Shown: piece after piece, positions 9,879-18,279 of the stretch
Numbering within the stretch: the first letter of the stretch is position 1
How the letters are laid out: each line of letters opens with the position of its first letter
DNA from: an uncultured Acidobacteriota bacterium
GTDB taxonomy: Bacteria > Acidobacteriota > Vicinamibacteria > Vicinamibacterales > 2-12-FULL-66-21
Assembly (NCBI GenBank): GCA_963820645.1
Contig: CAWGAS010000031.1
Span: 156,984-220,983, forward strand
Length of the DNA stretch: 64,000 nucleotides
Direction of reading: 5' to 3'
Notes under the pieces: generated by a model
Told to the model about the DNA's origin: nothing
The model's input: only the letters and a program-made list of their open reading frames with translations
Databases searched by the model: none
Translations under genes and position numbers: made by a program

Positions 9879-11703
9879 ATGAAAAGAATCCTGGCGCTGA
9901 CGACGGCGGTTGCGCTGATCCTGACGCAACCGCTCTACACACAGCCCGACCTCGGCGTCCCCTCGCCTCAGGGGTCCGTCGTCTGCACCTCCGCGCCGGC
10001 CTGCGACGCTGGAGCCTCGGTGCTGGCGATCGGGGGGAACGCCGTCGACGCCGCGGTCGCCACGGCGTTCGCCCTGGCCGTGACGCACCCGAGCGCGGGC
10101 AACATCGGCGGCGGCGGGTTCATGATCGTCCGCACCCCGGGCGGCAGCGTGACGTCGTTCGACTACCGTGAGACGGCCCCGCTCAAGGCGACGCGGACGA
10201 TGTATCTCGGCGCGGACGGCAAGATCGACATCAGCCTGACGCGGGCGGGGTATCTCGCGCCGGGCGTGCCCGGTTCCGTCCGCGGGCTGGCGCGCGCGCA
10301 CGGGAAGTTCGGCAAGCTGCCGTGGAAGGACGTCGTGATGCCCGGCGTCCTGCTCGCCGAGCAGGGATTCCCGCTGTCGGCCGGTCTCGCGCGCAGCCTC
10401 AACCGCGAGCTCGCCGGCCGGATGGCCGACTTCCCTGTCTCGGTCGCCGCGTACGGGAAGCCGGGTGGCGGCGAGTGGCGCGAGGGAGACCGGATGGTGC
10501 TCGCCGATCTCGGCAAGACGCTCCGCGCGATCGCCACGGAGGGCCCCGACGTCTTCTACAAAGGCTGGATCGCGGACCGCATCGCCGACGACATGAAAGC
10601 GAACGGCGGCCTGATCACGCGACAGGATCTGGCGAAGTACCAGGCCAGGGAGCGCCCGCCGCTGCGCCGCCCCTATCGCGGCTACGAGATCGTCTCGATG
10701 CCGCCCGTCAGCTCCGGCGGCGTGGCGCTGATCGAGATGCTGAACATCCTCGAGCCGTACAGACCTCAAGTCGAAGGGGCTGCTGACCGCGCCGGCCCTG
10801 CACCTCCAGATCGAAGCGATGCGCCGCGCCTACCTCGACCGCGCGCGGTTTCTCGGCGATCCCGATTTCGTCAAGGTCCCGGTCGTGCGCCTGACGTCGA
10901 GGTCGCACGCCAGATCCGCCGCGTCCACGATCAATCCGGCGAGGGCGTCGAGCAGCGTCGATCTCGGCAAGGACATCGTCACCGCCGCGACCGCCCCGGA
11001 ACCGGACGAGACGACGCACTACTCGATCATGGACCGCGACGGCATGGCGGTCACGACGACGACGACGCTCGAGGGCGGCTTCGGCTCGCACGTCGTCGTG
11101 AAGGGCACGGGCTTTCTGTTGAACAACGAGATGGGGGACTTCAACCGGAAGCCGGGGGACACGAACCTGACCGGCGGCATCGGGACGCCGCCGAACCTGA
11201 TCGATCCCGGCAAGCGGATGCTCAGCTCGATGACGCCGACGATGGTGCTGAAGAACGGGAAGGTCGTGCTGCTGACCGGCTCGCCGGGCGGACGGACGAT
11301 CATCAACACCGTCCTGACCGTCGTGCTCGGCGTCACGGAGTACGGCCTCACCGGGCGCGAGGCGGTGGATCTGCCGCGGATGCACCACCAGTGGCTGCCC
11401 GATCGCGCGAGCCTGGAGCCGGCAGGCGTAGTGAGCAACGTCCCGAGAGGCGTCGTGAGCAACGTCCCGGCTGGCGTGACCAACGAGGTTCCGAAGGCCG
11501 TCGGCGACGACGTGCTGGACGCGCTCCGCGCGATGGGACACACCGTCGTGCGCGCCGCAGAACGACAGGGGGATGCGCATTCGATCTGGGTCGCTCCAGA
11601 CGGGACACCCTACGGGGTCAACGACCGCCGAACGGCGGATTCGAAGGCGGCAACCCCTGTCCCGAGCGCATTTGACAGTCCCGACCGGCGGGCGATAGGC
11701 TAA
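9879..11703 (+). pseudogene. ggt: Gamma-glutamyltransferase, read in two frames
   Basis: N-terminal half MKRILALTT...AVTHPSAGNIGGGGFMIV...MPPVSSGGVALIEMLNILE. C-terminal half from about 10800 in another frame (ETTHYSIMDRDGMAVTTTTTLEGGFGS...SSMTPTMV...GSPGGRTIINTV). It also contains a 3 x 24-nt in-frame tandem repeat at 11425-11496. Confidence 0.85.
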
Positions 11704-11709
11704 CGAGGC

Positions 11710-11787
11710 ATGTTTCGCGCGCAGCACCACCACCGGCACCATCATCACTCCTGCTCCGGCGGGCCGGTCGTGCTGCACGCGTACTGA
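11710..11787 (+). CDS. Putative his operon leader peptide MFRAQHHHRHHHHSCSGGPVVLHAY
   Basis: 25 codons, below the ORF-track size cutoff. 7 His in 8 consecutive codons, GAGG just upstream, followed by an intrinsic terminator and hisI. Confidence 0.6.
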   Translation: MFRAQHHHRHHHHSCSGGPVVLHAY

Positions 11788-11819
11788 AAGACGACGAGAC
11801 AAACAGCAGCCACCACGAG

Positions 11820-11851
11820 CCCCGCTGGACCCAGGTTCAGCGGGGTTTTTT
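11820..11851 (+). terminator. Intrinsic terminator (attenuator) upstream of hisI
   Basis: CCCCGCTG (11820-27), 10-nt loop, CAGCGGGG (11838-45), TTTTTT (11846-51). Confidence 0.7.
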
Positions 11852-11880
11852 CATTTGTGGGCTTCTCTCATCCGGACGCC

Positions 11881-12201
11881 ATGGATTACTCGAAATTGAA
11901 CGGACTCATCCCGGCGGTCATCCAGGACAGCGCGACGCGCGAGGTCCTCATGGTCGGCTTCATGAACCAGGACGCGCTCGACCGGACGATCGAGACGGGC
12001 TTCGCGACCTTCTTCAGCCGGACGCGCGGGGCGTTGTGGATGAAGGGGGAGACGTCCGGCAACAAGCTGAAGGTCGAGCGGGTCCTCGTCGATTGCGACG
12101 ACGACACGCTGCTGGTGCTCGTGACGAGGCTCGGCGACGGCAACGTCTGCCACACCGGCGAGCGGACGTGCTTCTACCGGGAGCTGGAGCCTAAGATCTA
12201 A
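11881..12201 (+). CDS. hisI: Phosphoribosyl-AMP cyclohydrolase (monofunctional, no HisE domain)
   Basis: LIPAVIQDSATREVLMVGFMNQDAL...WMKGETSGN...VDCDDDTLLVLV...CHTGERTCFY. The listed ORF starts at a GTG at 11857; the ATG at 11881 is preferred. Confidence 0.9.
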   Translation: MDYSKLNGLIPAVIQDSATREVLMVGFMNQDALDRTIETGFATFFSRTRGALWMKGETSGNKLKVERVLVDCDDDTLLVLVTRLGDGNVCHTGERTCFYRELEPKI

Positions 12202-12273
12202 ACAGGAGATCAGGAGATCAGGAGTTTTTGTTTTGTTTGTTTGGTTTTTCTCCGGATCTTCTGACCTCCTGTT
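12201..12273. repeat. Tandem-armed palindrome, class E (CAGGAGAT / ATCTCCTG)
   Basis: aacaggagatcaggagatcaggag, then a T-rich loop, then ctccggatcttctgacctcctgtt. It lies inside the his operon between hisI and hisG. Confidence 0.9.
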
Positions 12274-12294
12274 AAAGACGGGAACTGAGCGATT

Positions 12295-13191
12295 GTGATG
12301 GACCAGATACTCAAGCTCGGCATACCCAAAGGGTCGCTGCAGGATGCGACGATCCACCTGTTCGCCCGCGCCGGCTTCAACATCTACGCGAGCGCGCGAT
12401 CGTACTTTCCGGCCATCGACGACCCCGAGATCGACTGCATGCTGATCCGCGCGCAGGAAATGGCCCGGTACGTCTCCGACGGGGTGCTGGACGCCGGCCT
12501 GACCGGGCAGGACTGGATTGCCGAGCACGCCGCGGGCAACGGGGGCAACGCGGGGGTCACGGCGCTGGCCGATCTCATCTACGCGAAGCAGAGCTTCGGG
12601 AAGGTCCGCTGGGTGCTGGCGGTGCCGGAGGAGTCGGCGTACAAGACCGTCCGCGATCTCGAGGGCGCGACGATTGCGACCGAGCTCGTCCGCGCGACGC
12701 AGGCCTACTTCGCGCGGCACGGCGTGAAGGTCAACGTCGAGTTCTCGTGGGGCGCCACCGAGGTCAAGGCGCCGCGGCTCGCCGACGCGATCGTCGAGGT
12801 CACCGAGACGGGATCGTCGCTGCGGGCGAACCGGCTCAGGATCATCGACACGATCCTCGAGTCCAACACGCAGCTCATCGCCAATCCGGCGTCGCTGGCG
12901 GATCCGTGGAAGCGCAACAAGCTCGAGAACATCGCGCTGCTGCTGAAGGCCGCCATCGAGGCGCAGGGACGGGTCGGCATCATGCTGAACACGCGCCGCG
13001 AAGACCTCCCGGCCGTGCTGGCGCTGCTGCCGGCGCTGCAGCGCCCGACGATCTCGCCGCTCAGCGACGACGACTGGGTCGCCATCAACACGATCATCGA
13101 GGAGCGCACGGTCAGGGACCTCATCCCGAAGCTGAAGGCCGCGCGCGCCCAGGGGATCGTCGAATACCCGCTCAACAAGATCGTGATGTGA
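12295..13191 (+). CDS. hisG: ATP phosphoribosyltransferase, long form
   Basis: Intact 298 aa. [22 protein letters not shown]...[18 protein letters not shown] plus a C-terminal regulatory domain. Confidence 0.9.
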
Positions 13192-13192
13192 G

Positions 13193-14513
13193 ATGCCGCG
13201 TCCATCCTCCGGTTCCGTCGTGCGGATCATCGCGTCCCGGCAGCGGGCGGCCATTGCCGCGCTGCTCGACCGCGGCGCGCGCCGCGACGCGGGGCTCGAG
13301 CGGCGAGTCGCGCAGCATCGTTTCGCGCGTGCGCCGGGACGGCGATCGGGCGCTGCTGGCCTACGCGCGGCGCTTCGACCGTTTGACGGGGCCGATGGAG
13401 GTGCCTGCCGACGAGATCCGCGCCGCCGCGCGCGAGGTCCCGCGCGACGTCCGGGAGGCGATCGCGACGGCGGCCCGTCACATCCGCCGCGTCGCGGCAC
13501 AACAGGTCCCCGGGACCTGGTCGATCGAACCGGTGCGCGGCGTGCGGATCGCGCAGCGCGTGCTGCCGCTGGACCGCGTCGGCTGTTACGTGCCGGCCGG
13601 GCGGTACCCGCTCCCCTCCTCGCTGCTCATGACCGCGATTCCCGCGCGGGTGGCCGGCGTGCCGGAGGTCGTCGCCGTCTGTCCGCGGCCGGACGCGACG
13701 ATCATGTGCGCCGCGCGCGAGGCCGGCGTGTCGCGGCTGTTCAGGCTCGGCGGGGCGCACGCCGTCGCGGCGCTCGCGTACGGCACCGCCACCGTGCCGC
13801 GCGTGGACAAGATCGTCGGCCCCGGCAACGCGTACGTCGCGGCGGCCAAGGCGCTGGTGTCGTTCGACTGCGCGATCGATTTCCATGCGGGCCCGAGCGA
13901 GATTGCGATCGTCTCGGCCACCGGCCGGCCCGCCTGGATCGCCGCGGACCTCCTCGCGCAGGCCGAGCACGATCCGGACGCACGCGCCATCCTGTTCACA
14001 CCGTCGCGGGCACTGGCGGACGCCGTCGCGCGCGAGCTGCACGCGCAGATGCCCGAGGCCGGGCCCGCGCGGCACGCCACGGCGAACAACGGCGCCATCG
14101 TGCTGACGCGGTCGATGGCCGAGGCGATCGGCCTCAGCCAGCGCATGGCGCCCGAGCACGCCGTCTGCGACACGGCGGCGATCGCGCGGCGCCTCACGCA
14201 CGCGGGGACGGTGTTCGTGGGTGACTACAGCGCGCAGGCATCCGGCGATTACGCGACCGGGTCGAACCACGTGCTCCCCACGAGCGGCGCCGCCAGGGCG
14301 CGCGGCGGCCTCAGCGCGGCGGATTTCGTCCGCGTGAGCACCGTGCAGCGGGTGACGCAGGCGGGACTCCGGCGGATCGCGCCGGCGGCGATCTCGCTCG
14401 CCCGGGCCGAGGGCCTCGCGGCGCACGCGGCGTCGATCGAAATCAGATTCCCAAAGTCGCGTGTCGCGTCCGGCGTCAGCCGGACCCGGTCATCGAGAAA
14501 GGCTCAGCGGTGA
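13193..14513 (+). pseudogene. hisD: Histidinol dehydrogenase, read in two frames
   Basis: The first ~40 codons are in the frame of 13193. The rest (IVSRVRRDGDRALLAYARRFD...GPGNAYVAAAK...AGPSEIAIV...AQAEHD...GDYATGSNHVLPT) is in another. The frame switch lies near 13310. Confidence 0.85.
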
Positions 14514-15547
14514 GTTACGAATACGAGCGGGTCCTGACGCCGGCGTCCGGCCTGCGGCTGCACCTGAACGAGAACACGGCCGGCTGCTCGCCCGCCGTGG
14601 TCGCGGCGCTGCAGGCCCTGACGCGGCAGGACCTCGCGGTCTACCCGGATTACGACGAGGCGATTGCGGCGTGCGCGTCGCGGCTGCGCGTGCCCGCCGA
14701 CTCGCTGCTGCTCACGAACGGCCTGGACGAGGGGATCTTCCTGGCCGCGCTCGCGACCCTCCGCGGCGGTTCCACCGTGGCGCCGTTCGAAGCCGTGGTC
14801 GTCGTTCCCGCATTCGACATGTATGCCGCGTGCACCGATGCCGTGGGCGGCCGGGTCGTCGAGGTGCCGCTCGGACGCGGGTTCGAGTTTCCGCTGGAGA
14901 ACGTTCTGGCGGCAATCAACCGGCGCACCCGCATCGTCTGGCTCACGAACCCGAACAACCCGACGGGCCAGATCGTGCCGCGCGACGCGATCCGCCGGAT
15001 TTCGGCGGCCGCCGGCGAGGCGATGGTGTTCGTGGACGAGGCCTACGTGGACTTCTGCGGGGAGACGCTGCTCGACGACAACGCGCTGGAGGGCATGGCG
15101 AACGTGGTGGTCGGCCGGACCTTCGCCAAGGCGTACGGCCTGGCCGGGCTGCGTGCGGGGGCGCTCGTCGCGAGGCCGGAGCGGCTGGCCGCCATGCGGC
15201 GAGCCATCCCGCCTTACAGCCTCAACGTGTGCGCGGCCGTCGCGCTGCCGGCCGCCCTGGGCGACACCGCGCACTTCGACTGGTACGTCGATCAGGTCGC
15301 GCAGTCCAAAGCGATGCTCTACGACTTCCTCGAGCGGCGCGGCGTGCCGTACTGGAAGAGCGCGGCCAACTTCGTGCTCGCGAGGTTCGACGGACAGCCC
15401 GGCCGCGTGGCCGCCGGGCTCGCGGCACGGGGCGTTCACGTGCGCGATCGCTCGACCGACCCGGGGTGCGCGGGCTGCCTGCGCATGACGGCGGGCGTGA
15501 CCGGGCACACGGCGGCGCTGCTCGCGGCGCTCGAGGAGATTCTGTGA
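14510..15547 (+). CDS. hisC: Histidinol-phosphate aminotransferase
   Basis: Intact 345 aa. [12 protein letters not shown]...NPNNPTG...[13 protein letters not shown]. The start overlaps the hisD stop. Confidence 0.9.
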
Positions 15548-16131
15548 GGCGAGCCACCATCGATCGGGTCACGACGGAAACGTCGATCGCGCTCCGGCTG
15601 ACGCTCGACGGCAAGGGGCGCTACGACGTGCGGACGGGGATCCGGTTCCTGGATCACATGCTGGAGCTCTTCGCCCGTCACGGCGCCTTCGACCTGACGC
15701 TCCACGCGAAGGGGGATCTCGACGTCGATCAGCATCACACCGTCGAGGACGCCGGCATCGCGCTCGGGGAGGCGGTGGCGGCGGGGCTCGGCAACCGGAA
15801 GGGCATCAACCGCGCCGGATACTTCGTGATGCCGATGGATGAGACGCTGGCGGTGGCGGCGATCGATCTGAGCGGCCGCGTGCACGCGGTCGTCGACCTG
15901 CGGCTCAAGGTCCGCCGCGTGGGCGATCTGCAGGCGGAGCTCGTCGAGGACTTCTTCGAGGGATTCGCCCAGGGCGCGAAGGCCAACGTCCACGTGAAGG
16001 TGCTGTACGGCCGCTCGAGCCATCACCAGATCGAGGCGGTGTTCAAGGCGTTCGCCCGCGCGCTGCGCGTCGCCTGCGCGCGCGACCCGCGCATGGCGCG
16101 GATGCTTCCGAGCACCAAGGGGCTTCTATGA
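15544..16131 (+). CDS. hisB: Imidazoleglycerol-phosphate dehydratase
   Basis: [16 protein letters not shown]...[16 protein letters not shown]...[14 protein letters not shown]...[23 protein letters not shown] start overlaps the hisC stop (GTGA). Confidence 0.9.
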
Positions 16132-16907
16132 TCGCGCTCATCGATTACGGAGCGGGCAATCTCACCTCGGTCCGCAAGGGCTTCGCGGCCGCGGGCGCGG
16201 ACCTGTTCACGCCCGCCGACCCATCCGAGCTCGAGGCGTCGGACGGCATCGTGGTCCCCGGCGTCGGACACTTCGGCGCGACCGCCGCGCTCGACGGCGC
16301 GTGGACCGCGGCCATCCGGCGTGCCGCCGGGCTCGGCACGCCGCTGCTCGGCATCTGCCTGGGGATGCAGTGGCTGTTCGAGGGGAGCGAGGAGGCGCCC
16401 GGCGTCAGCGGGCTCGGCGCCGTCGCGGGCGTCTGTTCGCGGCTGCCGCGCGACGAGAGCGGCGCGCTCAAGGTCCCGCACGTCGGCTGGAATTCGCTGC
16501 ACGCGCCGCGGCGCTCGCGATTGCTCGACGGGATCGAGGAGGGCAGCCAGGTGTATTTCACCCACTCGTACGCGGCGCCCGTCACGGCGCAGTCGGTCGC
16601 GACGTGCACGCACGGCCGGACCTTCGCCGCGGCGGTAGAGGACGGCGACATCTTCGGCGTCCAGTTCCACCCCGAGAAGTCGAGCGCCGCGGGAATTCGG
16701 ATCCTCCGCAACTTCGTCGATGTTGTCCGGAGATCGAGATTGAACGTCGACGGAGATCGGGAGCCGGGAGGTAGGAATTTTGGAACAGAAACAAACAAGA
16801 AACACAAACGCAATCCAGTCAACTCTGTCGTGCTCCTGTTCGAGCTGGAATCATGCTGTCGAAGCGCCTCATCGCGTGTCTCGACGTGCGCAACGGCTGC
16901 GTCGTGA
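16128..16907 (+). CDS. hisH: Imidazole glycerol phosphate synthase glutaminase subunit, with an abnormal 3' end
   Basis: [15 protein letters not shown]...[11 protein letters not shown]...[20 protein letters not shown]. No in-frame stop follows NFVDV. The ORF reads about 55 codons through a degenerate repeat and into hisF, so a lost stop or an indel is likely. The other two frames stop near 16743 and 16773. Confidence 0.8.
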
Positions 16908-17608
16908 AGGGCGTCAACTTCGAGGCCCTGCGCGAGGCGGGCGATCCGGCGGCGCTCGCCCGGCGCTACAACGTGGAAGGCATCGACGAGGTCGTCGTGC
17001 TCGACGTGACCGCGACGATCGAAGGGCGGCGGGCGTTCGAGGCCACGATCCGCGCCGTCTCGAGCGAGCTGTTCATCCCGCTGACCGTCGGCGGCGGCAT
17101 CCGCACCGAGGCGGACGCCGCGGCGGCGCTCGACGCGGGGGCCGACAAGGTCGGCGTCAACAGCGCGGCGCTGGCCGATCCGGCGCTGCTCACACGTCTG
17201 GCCGCACGCTACGGCAGCCAGGCGGTCGTCGTCGCCATCGACGCGAAACGCAACGGCAGCCGGTTCGACGTCTTCGCGCGGAGCGGAAGCGCGCCGACGG
17301 GACGCGACGCCGTCGAGTGGGCGATCGAAGCCGAGTCGCGCGGCGCCGGCGAGGTCCTGCTCACCTCGATCGATCGCGACGGGACGCGCGCGGGCTTCGA
17401 TTGCGGCCTGACCGCCGCCGTGTCGGGGGCCGTCTCGATTCCCGTGATCGCGTCCGGCGGAGCGGGCACCTTCGATCATTTCACCGAGGTCTTCACCGAC
17501 GGACGCGCGGACGCCGCGCTGGCGGCCTCCGTCTTCCATTACTCCGAGCACGCGGTCGCCGACCTGAAACGGCACCTGCTCGCCAAGGGGATTCCCGTCC
17601 GATGCTGA
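16853..17608 (+). CDS. hisF: Imidazole glycerol phosphate synthase cyclase subunit
   Basis: Intact 251 aa. [19 protein letters not shown]...TVGGGIR...TSIDRDGT...ASGGAG. Confidence 0.9.
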
Positions 17609-18279
17609 TTCCTTCAATCGATCTCCAGGGGGGCAAGATCGTCCAGCTCGTCCAGGGCGAGCGGCTCGCCATCGAGACCGGCGACATCGACGCGTGGGTC
17701 ACGCGGTTCAGCGGCCGCCCGAAGGTGCAGCTGATCGATCTGGACGCCGCCAAAGGGGCGGGCGAGAACCCCGGGCTCGTCGCGCACATCTGCGGGGTGC
17801 TGCCCTGCCGGGTCGGCGGCGGCATCCGCAGCCTCGAGCGGGCCCAGGCGACCCTCGCGCTCGGCGCGGTGAAGGTGATCCTCGGGTCCGCGCTCTTCCG
17901 CGACGGGATCGTGGACGTGGACTTCGCCGAGCGCCTGAGCGACCGGATCGGTCCGGATCGCCTGATCGCCGCGGTTGACGGCCGCGGGGGAAAGGTCGTC
18001 GTCGACGGCTGGCGCACGACGCTCGACCTGACGCCGGCCGAGGCCATCGGGCAGCTCGAGGAGTTCTTCGGCGAGTTTCTCTACACCCACGTGGACCTCG
18101 AAGGGCTCATGCGAGGGACCGACATGGCCGCAATCAAGGCGCTCCGGAGCGTCACCGACCGGGCGCTTACCGCCGCCGGAGGGATCACGACGCGGGAGGA
18201 GATCGCGGAGCTCGACGCGATGGGGGTGGACGCGGTCGTCGGGATGGCGCTCTATACGGGGAAGCTGGAGCTGGACTGA
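17602..18279 (+). CDS. hisA: ProFAR isomerase
   Basis: [19 protein letters not shown]...[11 protein letters not shown]...[11 protein letters not shown]...[11 protein letters not shown]. The ATG overlaps the hisF stop. Confidence 0.85.

Follow-up and report, generated by a model that had tools for sequence, protein, structure and literature searches.

The window analysed here, a 64,000-nt stretch of an Acidobacteriota genome of the order Vicinamibacterales, contains a histidine biosynthesis operon on the forward strand, where the promoter and leader elements described below also lie. The first structural gene is hisI (11881 to 12201), encoding a monofunctional phosphoribosyl-AMP cyclohydrolase (Pfam PRA-CH, 1.4e-30; NCBIfam NF000768, 140.5 bits against a cut-off of 126), and it is followed by hisG, hisD, hisC, hisB, hisH, hisF, and hisA (12295 to 18279), each identified by Pfam and NCBIfam matches. 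The order hisI-G-D-C-B-H-F-A obtained from these matches bears out the hisI-first operon of the original prediction, which was made from the sequence without database searches, and the host is indeed a member of the Acidobacteria-like lineage that it had suspected. Within the operon, hisF precedes hisA (hisH-hisF-hisA), and hisE is absent. The hisH frame (16128 to 16907) extends ~55 codons beyond the point where its conservation ends, into the beginning of hisF (16853 to 17608). The spacer between hisI and hisG (12198 to 12279) is filled by a long, near-perfect hairpin that is comparatively AT-rich (~40% G+C). Upstream of the operon, ggt is split across two frames at 10750 to 10775 (...LNILEPY, then DLKSKGLLTAPALHLQIEAMRR... 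in the +1 frame); the apparent extra A in ccgtacAgacctc (at ~10762) is either a real frameshift, which would make this a pseudogene, or an assembly error.

The stop codon of ggt (TAA, 11701 to 11703) and the ATG of hisI at 11881 are separated by 177 nt. This spacer contains a 25-codon, hisL-like open reading frame (ORF; 11710 to 11787), which encodes the peptide MFRAQHHHRHHHHSCSGGPVVLHAY followed by a stop codon. Codons for the end product of the hisIGDCBHFA operon are clustered within it; the stretch HHHRHHHH (11725 to 11748) includes 7 His codons, a mixture of CAC and CAT, in 8 consecutive codons. Spacer length, ORF position, and His count are all as first reported. A strict genome-wide scan for a short His-run ORF followed by a terminator found this single instance in the 6.6-Mb assembly (67.8% G+C). 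A second strict scan of the genome, for the combined signature of promoter, short ORF, and terminator, returned the His leader and two uninformative matches and nothing else.

Among named genomes, the nearest are metagenome-assembled genomes of the Acidobacteriota (class Vicinamibacteria, order Vicinamibacterales). To place the ORF in a comparative context, we extracted the DNA upstream of hisI from 60 relatives (of the same genus, family, and order), from 80 named loci, and from a phylum-wide sample, and scored a short ORF as His-rich when 4 or more of 8 codons specify His. Such ORFs, homologous to the one in the window, are present in 116 of 124 distinct hisI upstream regions of the Vicinamibacterales, compared with 1 of 124 on the reverse strand of the same regions. 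The leaders have 19 to 31 codons (median 24), including 4 to 12 His codons (median 7), and their stop codons usually lie 65 to 135 nt 5' of hisI. Several of the 8 regions scored as negative have weaker leaders with 3 His codons and a terminator; one region lies at the end of its contig, and in one the leader seems to be frameshifted. A strong GC-rich hairpin followed by a U-run lies between the leader stop codon and hisI in 111 of the 116 leader-bearing relatives, with the order-wide consensus arms GCCCCGCYGG and CCRGCGGGGC. The search of relatives for a His-run ORF followed by a terminator, suggested together with the original prediction, thus recovered both parts across the order. The gene upstream of the leader differs among the relatives.

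The His triplets themselves are maintained as codons, since conservation of the CA dinucleotide reaches 90% or more but the third base is variable (alignment A1, 37 sequences); across the leaders, CAC is used 418 times and CAT 299 times. The remainder of the peptide behaves differently. The tail SCSGGPVELHA appears to be conserved within the family, but across families its G-rich core falls in all three reading frames (frame counts 42, 17, and 7), indicating that this part is kept as RNA and not as peptide.

Alignment of the relatives also identified a promoter directly in front of the leader. The conserved layout, TTGACA-N18-TAGGCT-N8-ATG, spans 11672 to 11712; the -35 box (11672 to 11677) is inside the 3' end of ggt, and the -10 box TAGGCT (11696 to 11701), of the TAnnnT type, shares its last base with the first base of the ggt stop codon. 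Promoters with a -35 box matching at least 4/6 positions, a spacer of 17 to 19 nt, and a TAnnnT -10 box were recognised in 88 of 112 relatives, and the same test anchored at all opposite-strand ATG and GTG triplets succeeded at 5 of 2289. Among these 88, a perfect TTGACA is present in 72 and a spacer of exactly 18 nt in 77; the most frequent -10 box is TAGGCT (39), and the end of the -10 box is 6 to 10 nt from the start codon in 84. A consensus promoter scanner gave no match at the locus; it requires 4/6 in the -10 box, in which TAGGCT scores 3. Transcription normally starts 6 to 8 nt past the -10 box. Consistent with this, -10 boxes of a related promoter type are 7±1 nt from the start site (PMC3896937). 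The geometry therefore predicts a transcription start at 11708 to 11710 and a 5' untranslated region of 0 to 2 nt. The original prediction had listed the lack of a transcript 5' end upstream of 11710 as evidence against itself, which is mistaken, since the start predicted here lies at 11708 to 11710.

A GAGG tetramer had been noted before the ATG. It is present (11705 to 11708), but it is separated from the ATG by 1 nt and is neither usable nor conserved as a Shine-Dalgarno sequence. Tetramers resembling a Shine-Dalgarno sequence occur at a working distance in 3 of 112 leaders versus 45 of 112 hisI starts at the same loci, and the 8 nt preceding the leader start codon show no conservation. Because a sigma-70-type promoter ends 6 to 10 nt 5' of the start codon and a Shine-Dalgarno sequence is missing, the leader transcript is probably leaderless or preceded by only 1 to 2 nt.

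The same attenuator might instead be carried on a longer mRNA, produced by read-through from ggt or from a promoter further upstream, with GAGG or some other element serving as the ribosome binding site. The tetramer does exist, a terminator between ggt and the leader was not found, and the strict TTGACA-N17/18-TAnnnT sites in the genome (62, with no clear peak of long ORFs at 6 to 9 nt from them) are too sparse to show that leaderless genes are common. However, a tetramer 1 nt from the AUG is too close for Shine-Dalgarno function, such tetramers are nearly missing from the related leaders, and the promoter keeps a fixed distance to the start codon that the control anchors very rarely reproduce. 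In addition, in a near-identical relative (L003) with an identical HisI, similarity to the window begins within ~5 nt 5' of the -35 box, and the sequence further upstream is unrelated. A longer mRNA is therefore unlikely, and we retain the start at or next to the AUG as the preferred reading.

Downstream of the promoter, the leader RNA can be divided into four segments with alternative pairings. Segment 1 (11716 to 11737) overlaps the first His codons and is the 5' strand of the 1:2 (anti-antiterminator) hairpin. Segment 2 (11754 to 11781) begins with the outer antiterminator strand CUCCGGCGGG (11754 to 11763), continues as the 3' strand of the 1:2 hairpin (GCCGGU..GUGCUGC..CGCG, 11763 to 11781), and includes GCUGC (11772 to 11776), which doubles as the inner antiterminator strand. 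Segment 3 consists of GCAGC (11806 to 11810), the partner of 11772 to 11776, and of the terminator 5' arm GAGCCCCGCUGGAC (11817 to 11830), of which 11821 to 11829 pairs with 11755 to 11763 in the antiterminator. Segment 4 (11835 to 11851) comprises the terminator 3' arm (11835 to 11848) and the U-tract (11846 to 11851).

The terminator, GAGCCCCGCUGGAC-CCAG-GUUCAGCGGGGUUU, has a 14-bp GC-rich stem (11817 to 11830 with 11835 to 11848), a CCAG loop, T6 at 11846 to 11851, and a free energy of -26 kcal/mol. It had been described as spanning 11820 to 11851, which was correct as to its presence and too short as to its stem. The region 11700 to 11860 folds better than all of 200 dinucleotide shuffles (z = -3.6), and its minimum free energy structure consists of a long hairpin (11716 to 11781) plus the terminator. 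The previously noted pairing of ACCGGC (11732 to 11737) with GCCGGU (11763 to 11768) occurs inside this larger hairpin, in which 11716 to 11737 and 11763 to 11781 form the 1:2 structure (-34 kcal/mol) that overlaps the regulatory codons. Its three helices are 68% to 85% paired in 37 relatives, with some double-sided changes.

The outer antiterminator strand CUCCGGCGGG mimics the terminator 3' arm and can pair with the 5' arm (11821 to 11829). The complementarity between CCGGCGGG (11756 to 11763) and CCCGCUGG (11821 to 11828) in the original prediction is real, and the helix extends to 9 bp with U11755-A11829. The proposed 2:3 antiterminator is thus present and longer than claimed, as it also includes 11772 to 11776 with 11806 to 11810. 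This second helix matters, because it shares its strand with the 1:2 hairpin and so makes the antiterminator truly exclusive with it. The outer strand shares G11763 alone with the hairpin, giving a total overlap of 11763 and 11772 to 11776; the exclusivity of the two structures rests on the shorter inner helix plus the position of the ribosome.

These pairings are supported by the alignment of relatives. RNAalifold applied to A1 yields the terminator at full length, and when the sequences are cut before the 3' arm it yields exactly the 11755 to 11763 with 11821 to 11829 helix. In the 37 sequences, 97.3% of the cells of this outer helix are paired, and its only variable column pair (67/144) is GC in 16, GU in 16, AU in 5, and mismatched in none. 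The inner helix is 85% paired, with changes on both sides in 4 of its 5 pairs. Overall, 93% of antiterminator cells are paired compared with 29% to 48% when the partner is slid by 1 to 3 columns. In the terminator helix, 91% of cells are paired, and 5 of the pairs show changes on both strands. Covariation of the alternative stems, which had been proposed as a check, is therefore seen as GC/GU/AU exchanges in the antiterminator and as two-sided changes in the terminator. Order-wide, the pairing of the post-His region with the terminator 5' arm is matched by at most 5 of 100 dinucleotide shuffles of the same leader in 54% of 111 sequences (5% is expected by chance); about half of the sequences do not beat their shuffles, for which a crude definition of the arm may be the reason. 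The position of the antiterminator strand is constant: by median, 9 nt separate it from the end of the His run, 13 nt from the stop codon downstream, and 45 nt from the terminator arm.

The same observations bear on whether the ORF could instead specify a small His-rich protein with a function of its own, such as metal binding, with the hairpin serving as a plain terminator of ggt or of the small gene. His-rich peptides are able to bind metals, and the tail SCSGGPVELHA looks conserved within the family. However, the G-rich core of that tail is read in three frames in other families and is complementary, with covariation, to the terminator arm; further, the element is always 5' of his genes (hisI, or hisG or a hisZ-like gene elsewhere in the Acidobacteriota), and it is the upstream gene that varies. 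A stand-alone small protein is accordingly rejected as highly improbable. Equally improbable, and likewise rejected, is a sensor made of RNA alone, for instance a T-box or a riboswitch for uncharged tRNA-His or a metabolite, with the ORF incidental: some Firmicutes and Actinobacteria do regulate his genes by T-boxes (PMC9413887), but neither the T-box (RF00230) nor any other cis-regulatory Rfam family matches 11000 to 12500 at E values up to 10, the 177-nt region is too small for a T-box, and the His codons are conserved as codons with a variable third position. The permissive Rfam scan of 11000 to 12500 returned nothing beyond chance matches: the hisI-hisG palindrome hit miRNA models, and a Burkholderia sRNA model matched across the terminator at E 0.59.

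Together, these features very probably constitute a ribosome-mediated transcription attenuator of hisIGDCBHFA that reports the supply of charged tRNA-His. The 1:2, 2:3, 3:4 logic originally suggested in front of this hisI-first operon holds up, with leader ORF, terminator, and antiterminator pairing conserved across the order and with folds that agree. The elements in the sequence, the way they are conserved and covary, and the alternative folds predicted for them were obtained directly here; we infer the transcription start, the translation of the leader, the timing of ribosome and polymerase, and the response to histidine as predicted steps. The promoter TTGACA-N18-TAGGCT would start transcription on the AUG at 11710 or no more than 2 nt away from it, and the leader would be translated without a Shine-Dalgarno sequence. 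If no ribosome is present, segment 1 (11716 to 11737) would pair with segment 2 (11763 to 11781), leaving segment 3 free; the terminator (11817 to 11848) and its U-tract could then form, and polymerase would halt ~30 nt 5' of hisI. When histidine is plentiful, the ribosome would pass the seven His codons and be located on or just past 11755 to 11776 while segments 3 and 4 emerge, which would block the antiterminator and again lead to termination. When charged tRNA-His is scarce, the ribosome would stall with a His codon (11725 to 11745) in the A site, covering segment 1 and leaving 11755 to 11776 free. CUCCGGCGGG and GCUGC would then pair with GCAGC and CCCGCUGGA (11806 to 11829), and the antiterminator would trap the terminator 5' arm, such that polymerase reads into hisI.

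Folding under ribosome constraints gives structures of this kind. Ribosome-free nascent RNA to 11795 folds into the 1:2 hairpin (-34 kcal/mol), and the complete RNA folds into the 1:2 hairpin plus the terminator. Stalling was modelled by keeping the RNA single-stranded from 11710 to 12 nt past the hungry His codon, with the 3' end placed before the terminator 3' arm. With the A site on His codons from 11725 to 11743, the result is a single long antiterminator (-29 to -32 kcal/mol), comprising 11755 to 11763 with 11821 to 11829, 11770 to 11776 with 11806 to 11813, and small helices. A stall on the last His codon (11746) starts to cover the antiterminator strand, and the fold weakens to -22 kcal/mol. 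With a ribosome over 11739 to 11766, over 11757 to 11784, or at the stop codon, the terminator is the sole stable structure of segments 3 and 4. At equilibrium, the terminator (-26 kcal/mol) beats the antiterminator even with a stalled ribosome (A site at 11731, full RNA), suggesting that the switch must be kinetic, as in classical systems. Judged by its sequence, the element is a real, well-conserved histidine attenuator of the classical type. The mechanism itself is textbook; the less usual trait is the probable leaderless start.

Related leaders are present elsewhere in the phylum. His-rich leaders occur upstream of hisI in four further families (f45, f57, f92, and f90), including 8 of 8 upstream regions examined in f45 as well as 4 further f45 loci. 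In ~25 further families a His-rich leader directly 5' of hisI is absent; hisI is often fused or operon-internal there. A covariance model (R1) built from A1 recovered the hisI leaders in a search of 300 Acidobacteriota genomes. We inspected the 20 best R1 matches among those that lay neither in the order nor near a known hisI locus; since about half of these are plain terminators after unrelated genes, the R1 tally of 82 of 301 genomes overstates the family and is not a census. The inspected loci include His leaders with terminators before hisG in f94 (L200, MTVIRHHHHHGNKLQDLMLLR) and in f40 (L203 and L205, MWNGEHYHHHHHHGPMGRGGGVR), and a His leader (MFTTDRGHHAYWHHHHTGGG...) with a terminator before a HisZ/HisS-type gene in f47 (L213). 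In this phylum, operons beginning with hisI are therefore not the only ones to have a His leader.

Short ORFs rich in codons for other amino acids were found as well. A leader containing WWW (..VRNWWWFLNGR..) with a terminator precedes trpE in f38 (L206) and is a candidate Trp attenuator. A poly-Cys short ORF (VCVCCCCCCCTK..) with a terminator, located before a gene for a PLP-dependent enzyme that is taken to be cysteine synthase, is a candidate Cys attenuator in f65 (L216). A Phe-rich short ORF (MFDRASLSFVFLADF..) with a terminator before pheA (chorismate mutase/prephenate dehydratase) in f68 (L204) is a candidate for a possible Phe attenuator. The genome of the window itself has a promoter-like TTGACT-N18-TATAAA-N7-ATG on contig C4 (75400 to 76900), leading into a short ORF with 8 Cys codons (MFAGNPCACTCCRCCMCSAQGFPAFGLPR, then a stop codon) and a terminator (AAGCCCGGGAGG-TCAACA-CTTCCCGGGTTTTTG). 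A gene that begins ~55 nt further on encodes an N-terminus matching the siroheme-synthase NAD-binding domain, and a uroporphyrin methyltransferase-like frame follows it. The C4 element shares the layout of the His leader and is a candidate for a leaderless attenuator that senses cysteine. A looser scan picked up a Trp-rich candidate on contig C28, which was rejected because it forms the tail of a longer reading frame and no trp gene follows it. The first 300 nt of L215 (f54) have two tandem ~100-nt units in front of a PLP-dependent enzyme gene taken as threonine synthase; each unit holds GATTTAAGCAA(A/C)TTGCTCCACGTAAAAAA and ends in a terminator, and these units could be an unrecognised RNA element rather than a leader peptide.

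Beyond the his operon, the Acidobacteriota may sense amino acids in general by means of leaderless short-ORF attenuators. This tentative reading, for which the prospects are close to even, draws on the His leader in several families, where it has moved between hisI-, hisG-, and hisZ-first operons, on the Cys short ORF of C4, and on the Trp, poly-Cys, and possibly Phe leaders elsewhere. If it is true, the phylum would resemble the Actinobacteria in having "ribulons", sets of regulons read by the ribosome, all of them entered through leaderless initiation.

While the Acidobacteriota are among the most abundant soil bacteria, to our knowledge almost nothing is known about their gene regulation. 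According to a 2010 survey, almost no attenuator predicted in Acidobacteria had an assigned function (PMC2965389). The His attenuator offers, for a core pathway, a specific regulatory circuit that experiments can address, and its promoter (TTGACA, a spacer of 18 nt, and TAnnnT) is a conserved instance of the housekeeping type. It also offers indirect evidence, from promoter geometry, that leaderless translation probably occurs in the phylum, and it supplies an annotation rule that is ready for use in more than 100 genomes. Further, His-leader attenuation gains another independent origin, or at least a deep divergence, which bears on how easily such switches arise.

In the literature searched, His-leader attenuators are described in Proteobacteria and predicted in a few Firmicutes lineages and in Actinobacteria (PMC9413887, PMC2965389, PMC4833913). 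We found no paper on leader-peptide his attenuation in Acidobacteria, in agreement with the original prediction, which was not aware of a description for such a lineage; this is an absence from the literature searched, not proof.

The best-known case is the hisL attenuator of Escherichia coli and Salmonella (Rfam His_leader, RF00514; Johnston et al. 1980, cited after PMC3896937 and PMC9413887). Like hisL, the element described here combines a short ORF containing seven His codons with an intrinsic terminator ahead of the operon's first gene and with alternative pairings that depend on where the ribosome stands, and it shares the predicted logic in which stalling would give read-through and free or no translation would give termination. 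Unlike hisL, its first gene is hisI and not hisG, its His run is interrupted by Arg, its leader start has no Shine-Dalgarno sequence, and its promoter is placed for a leaderless mRNA. The two are without similarity in sequence or structure, as cmscan with permissive filters found no match to RF00514 in 11000 to 12500 at E values up to 10. The enterobacterial his leader is laid out in six segments (A to F), compared with four main segments and a short inner helix here.

Predicted His-leader attenuators of Firmicutes, in the B. cereus group (hisZ/hisS), Peptostreptococcaceae, and Erysipelotrichales, are a second point of comparison (PMC2965389 and PMC9413887). In these sources, as in the present case, an independent, lineage-specific leader with His codons and a terminator/antiterminator was found by comparative genomics and is unmatched by RF00514. 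They differ in phylum, sequence, and gene context; the Firmicutes leaders have 3 to 5 consecutive His codons, and leaderless geometry is not reported for them in the portions consulted.

Two actinobacterial systems can also be compared. Corynebacterium glutamicum has leader peptides upstream of trpE, leuA, ilvB, and aroF (PMC3890552). It shares with the present genome a high GC content and a TAnnnT-type -10 box, and it has many leaderless mRNAs and small leaders before amino acid operons. In contrast to the locus described here, its his genes have no His leader peptide, and a T-box-like element has been proposed for them (PMC3896937). Mycobacteria have leaderless sensory short ORFs (LL-sORFs), including polycysteine LL-sORFs, that make up a "ribulon" (bioRxiv 10.1101/834739). 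The transcript of a leaderless short ORF begins at RUG; in the His leader, the promoter geometry places the predicted start 0 to 2 nt before the AUG, and a Shine-Dalgarno sequence is absent. The Cys-rich short ORF before the siroheme synthase gene in the genome studied here resembles the polycysteine LL-sORFs, while the His leader differs from the mycobacterial LL-sORFs in phylum and in the amino acid sensed. Finally, the mycobacterial case that has been studied acts on translation by masking a downstream ribosome binding site, whereas the canonical intrinsic terminator in front of hisI points to control of transcription.
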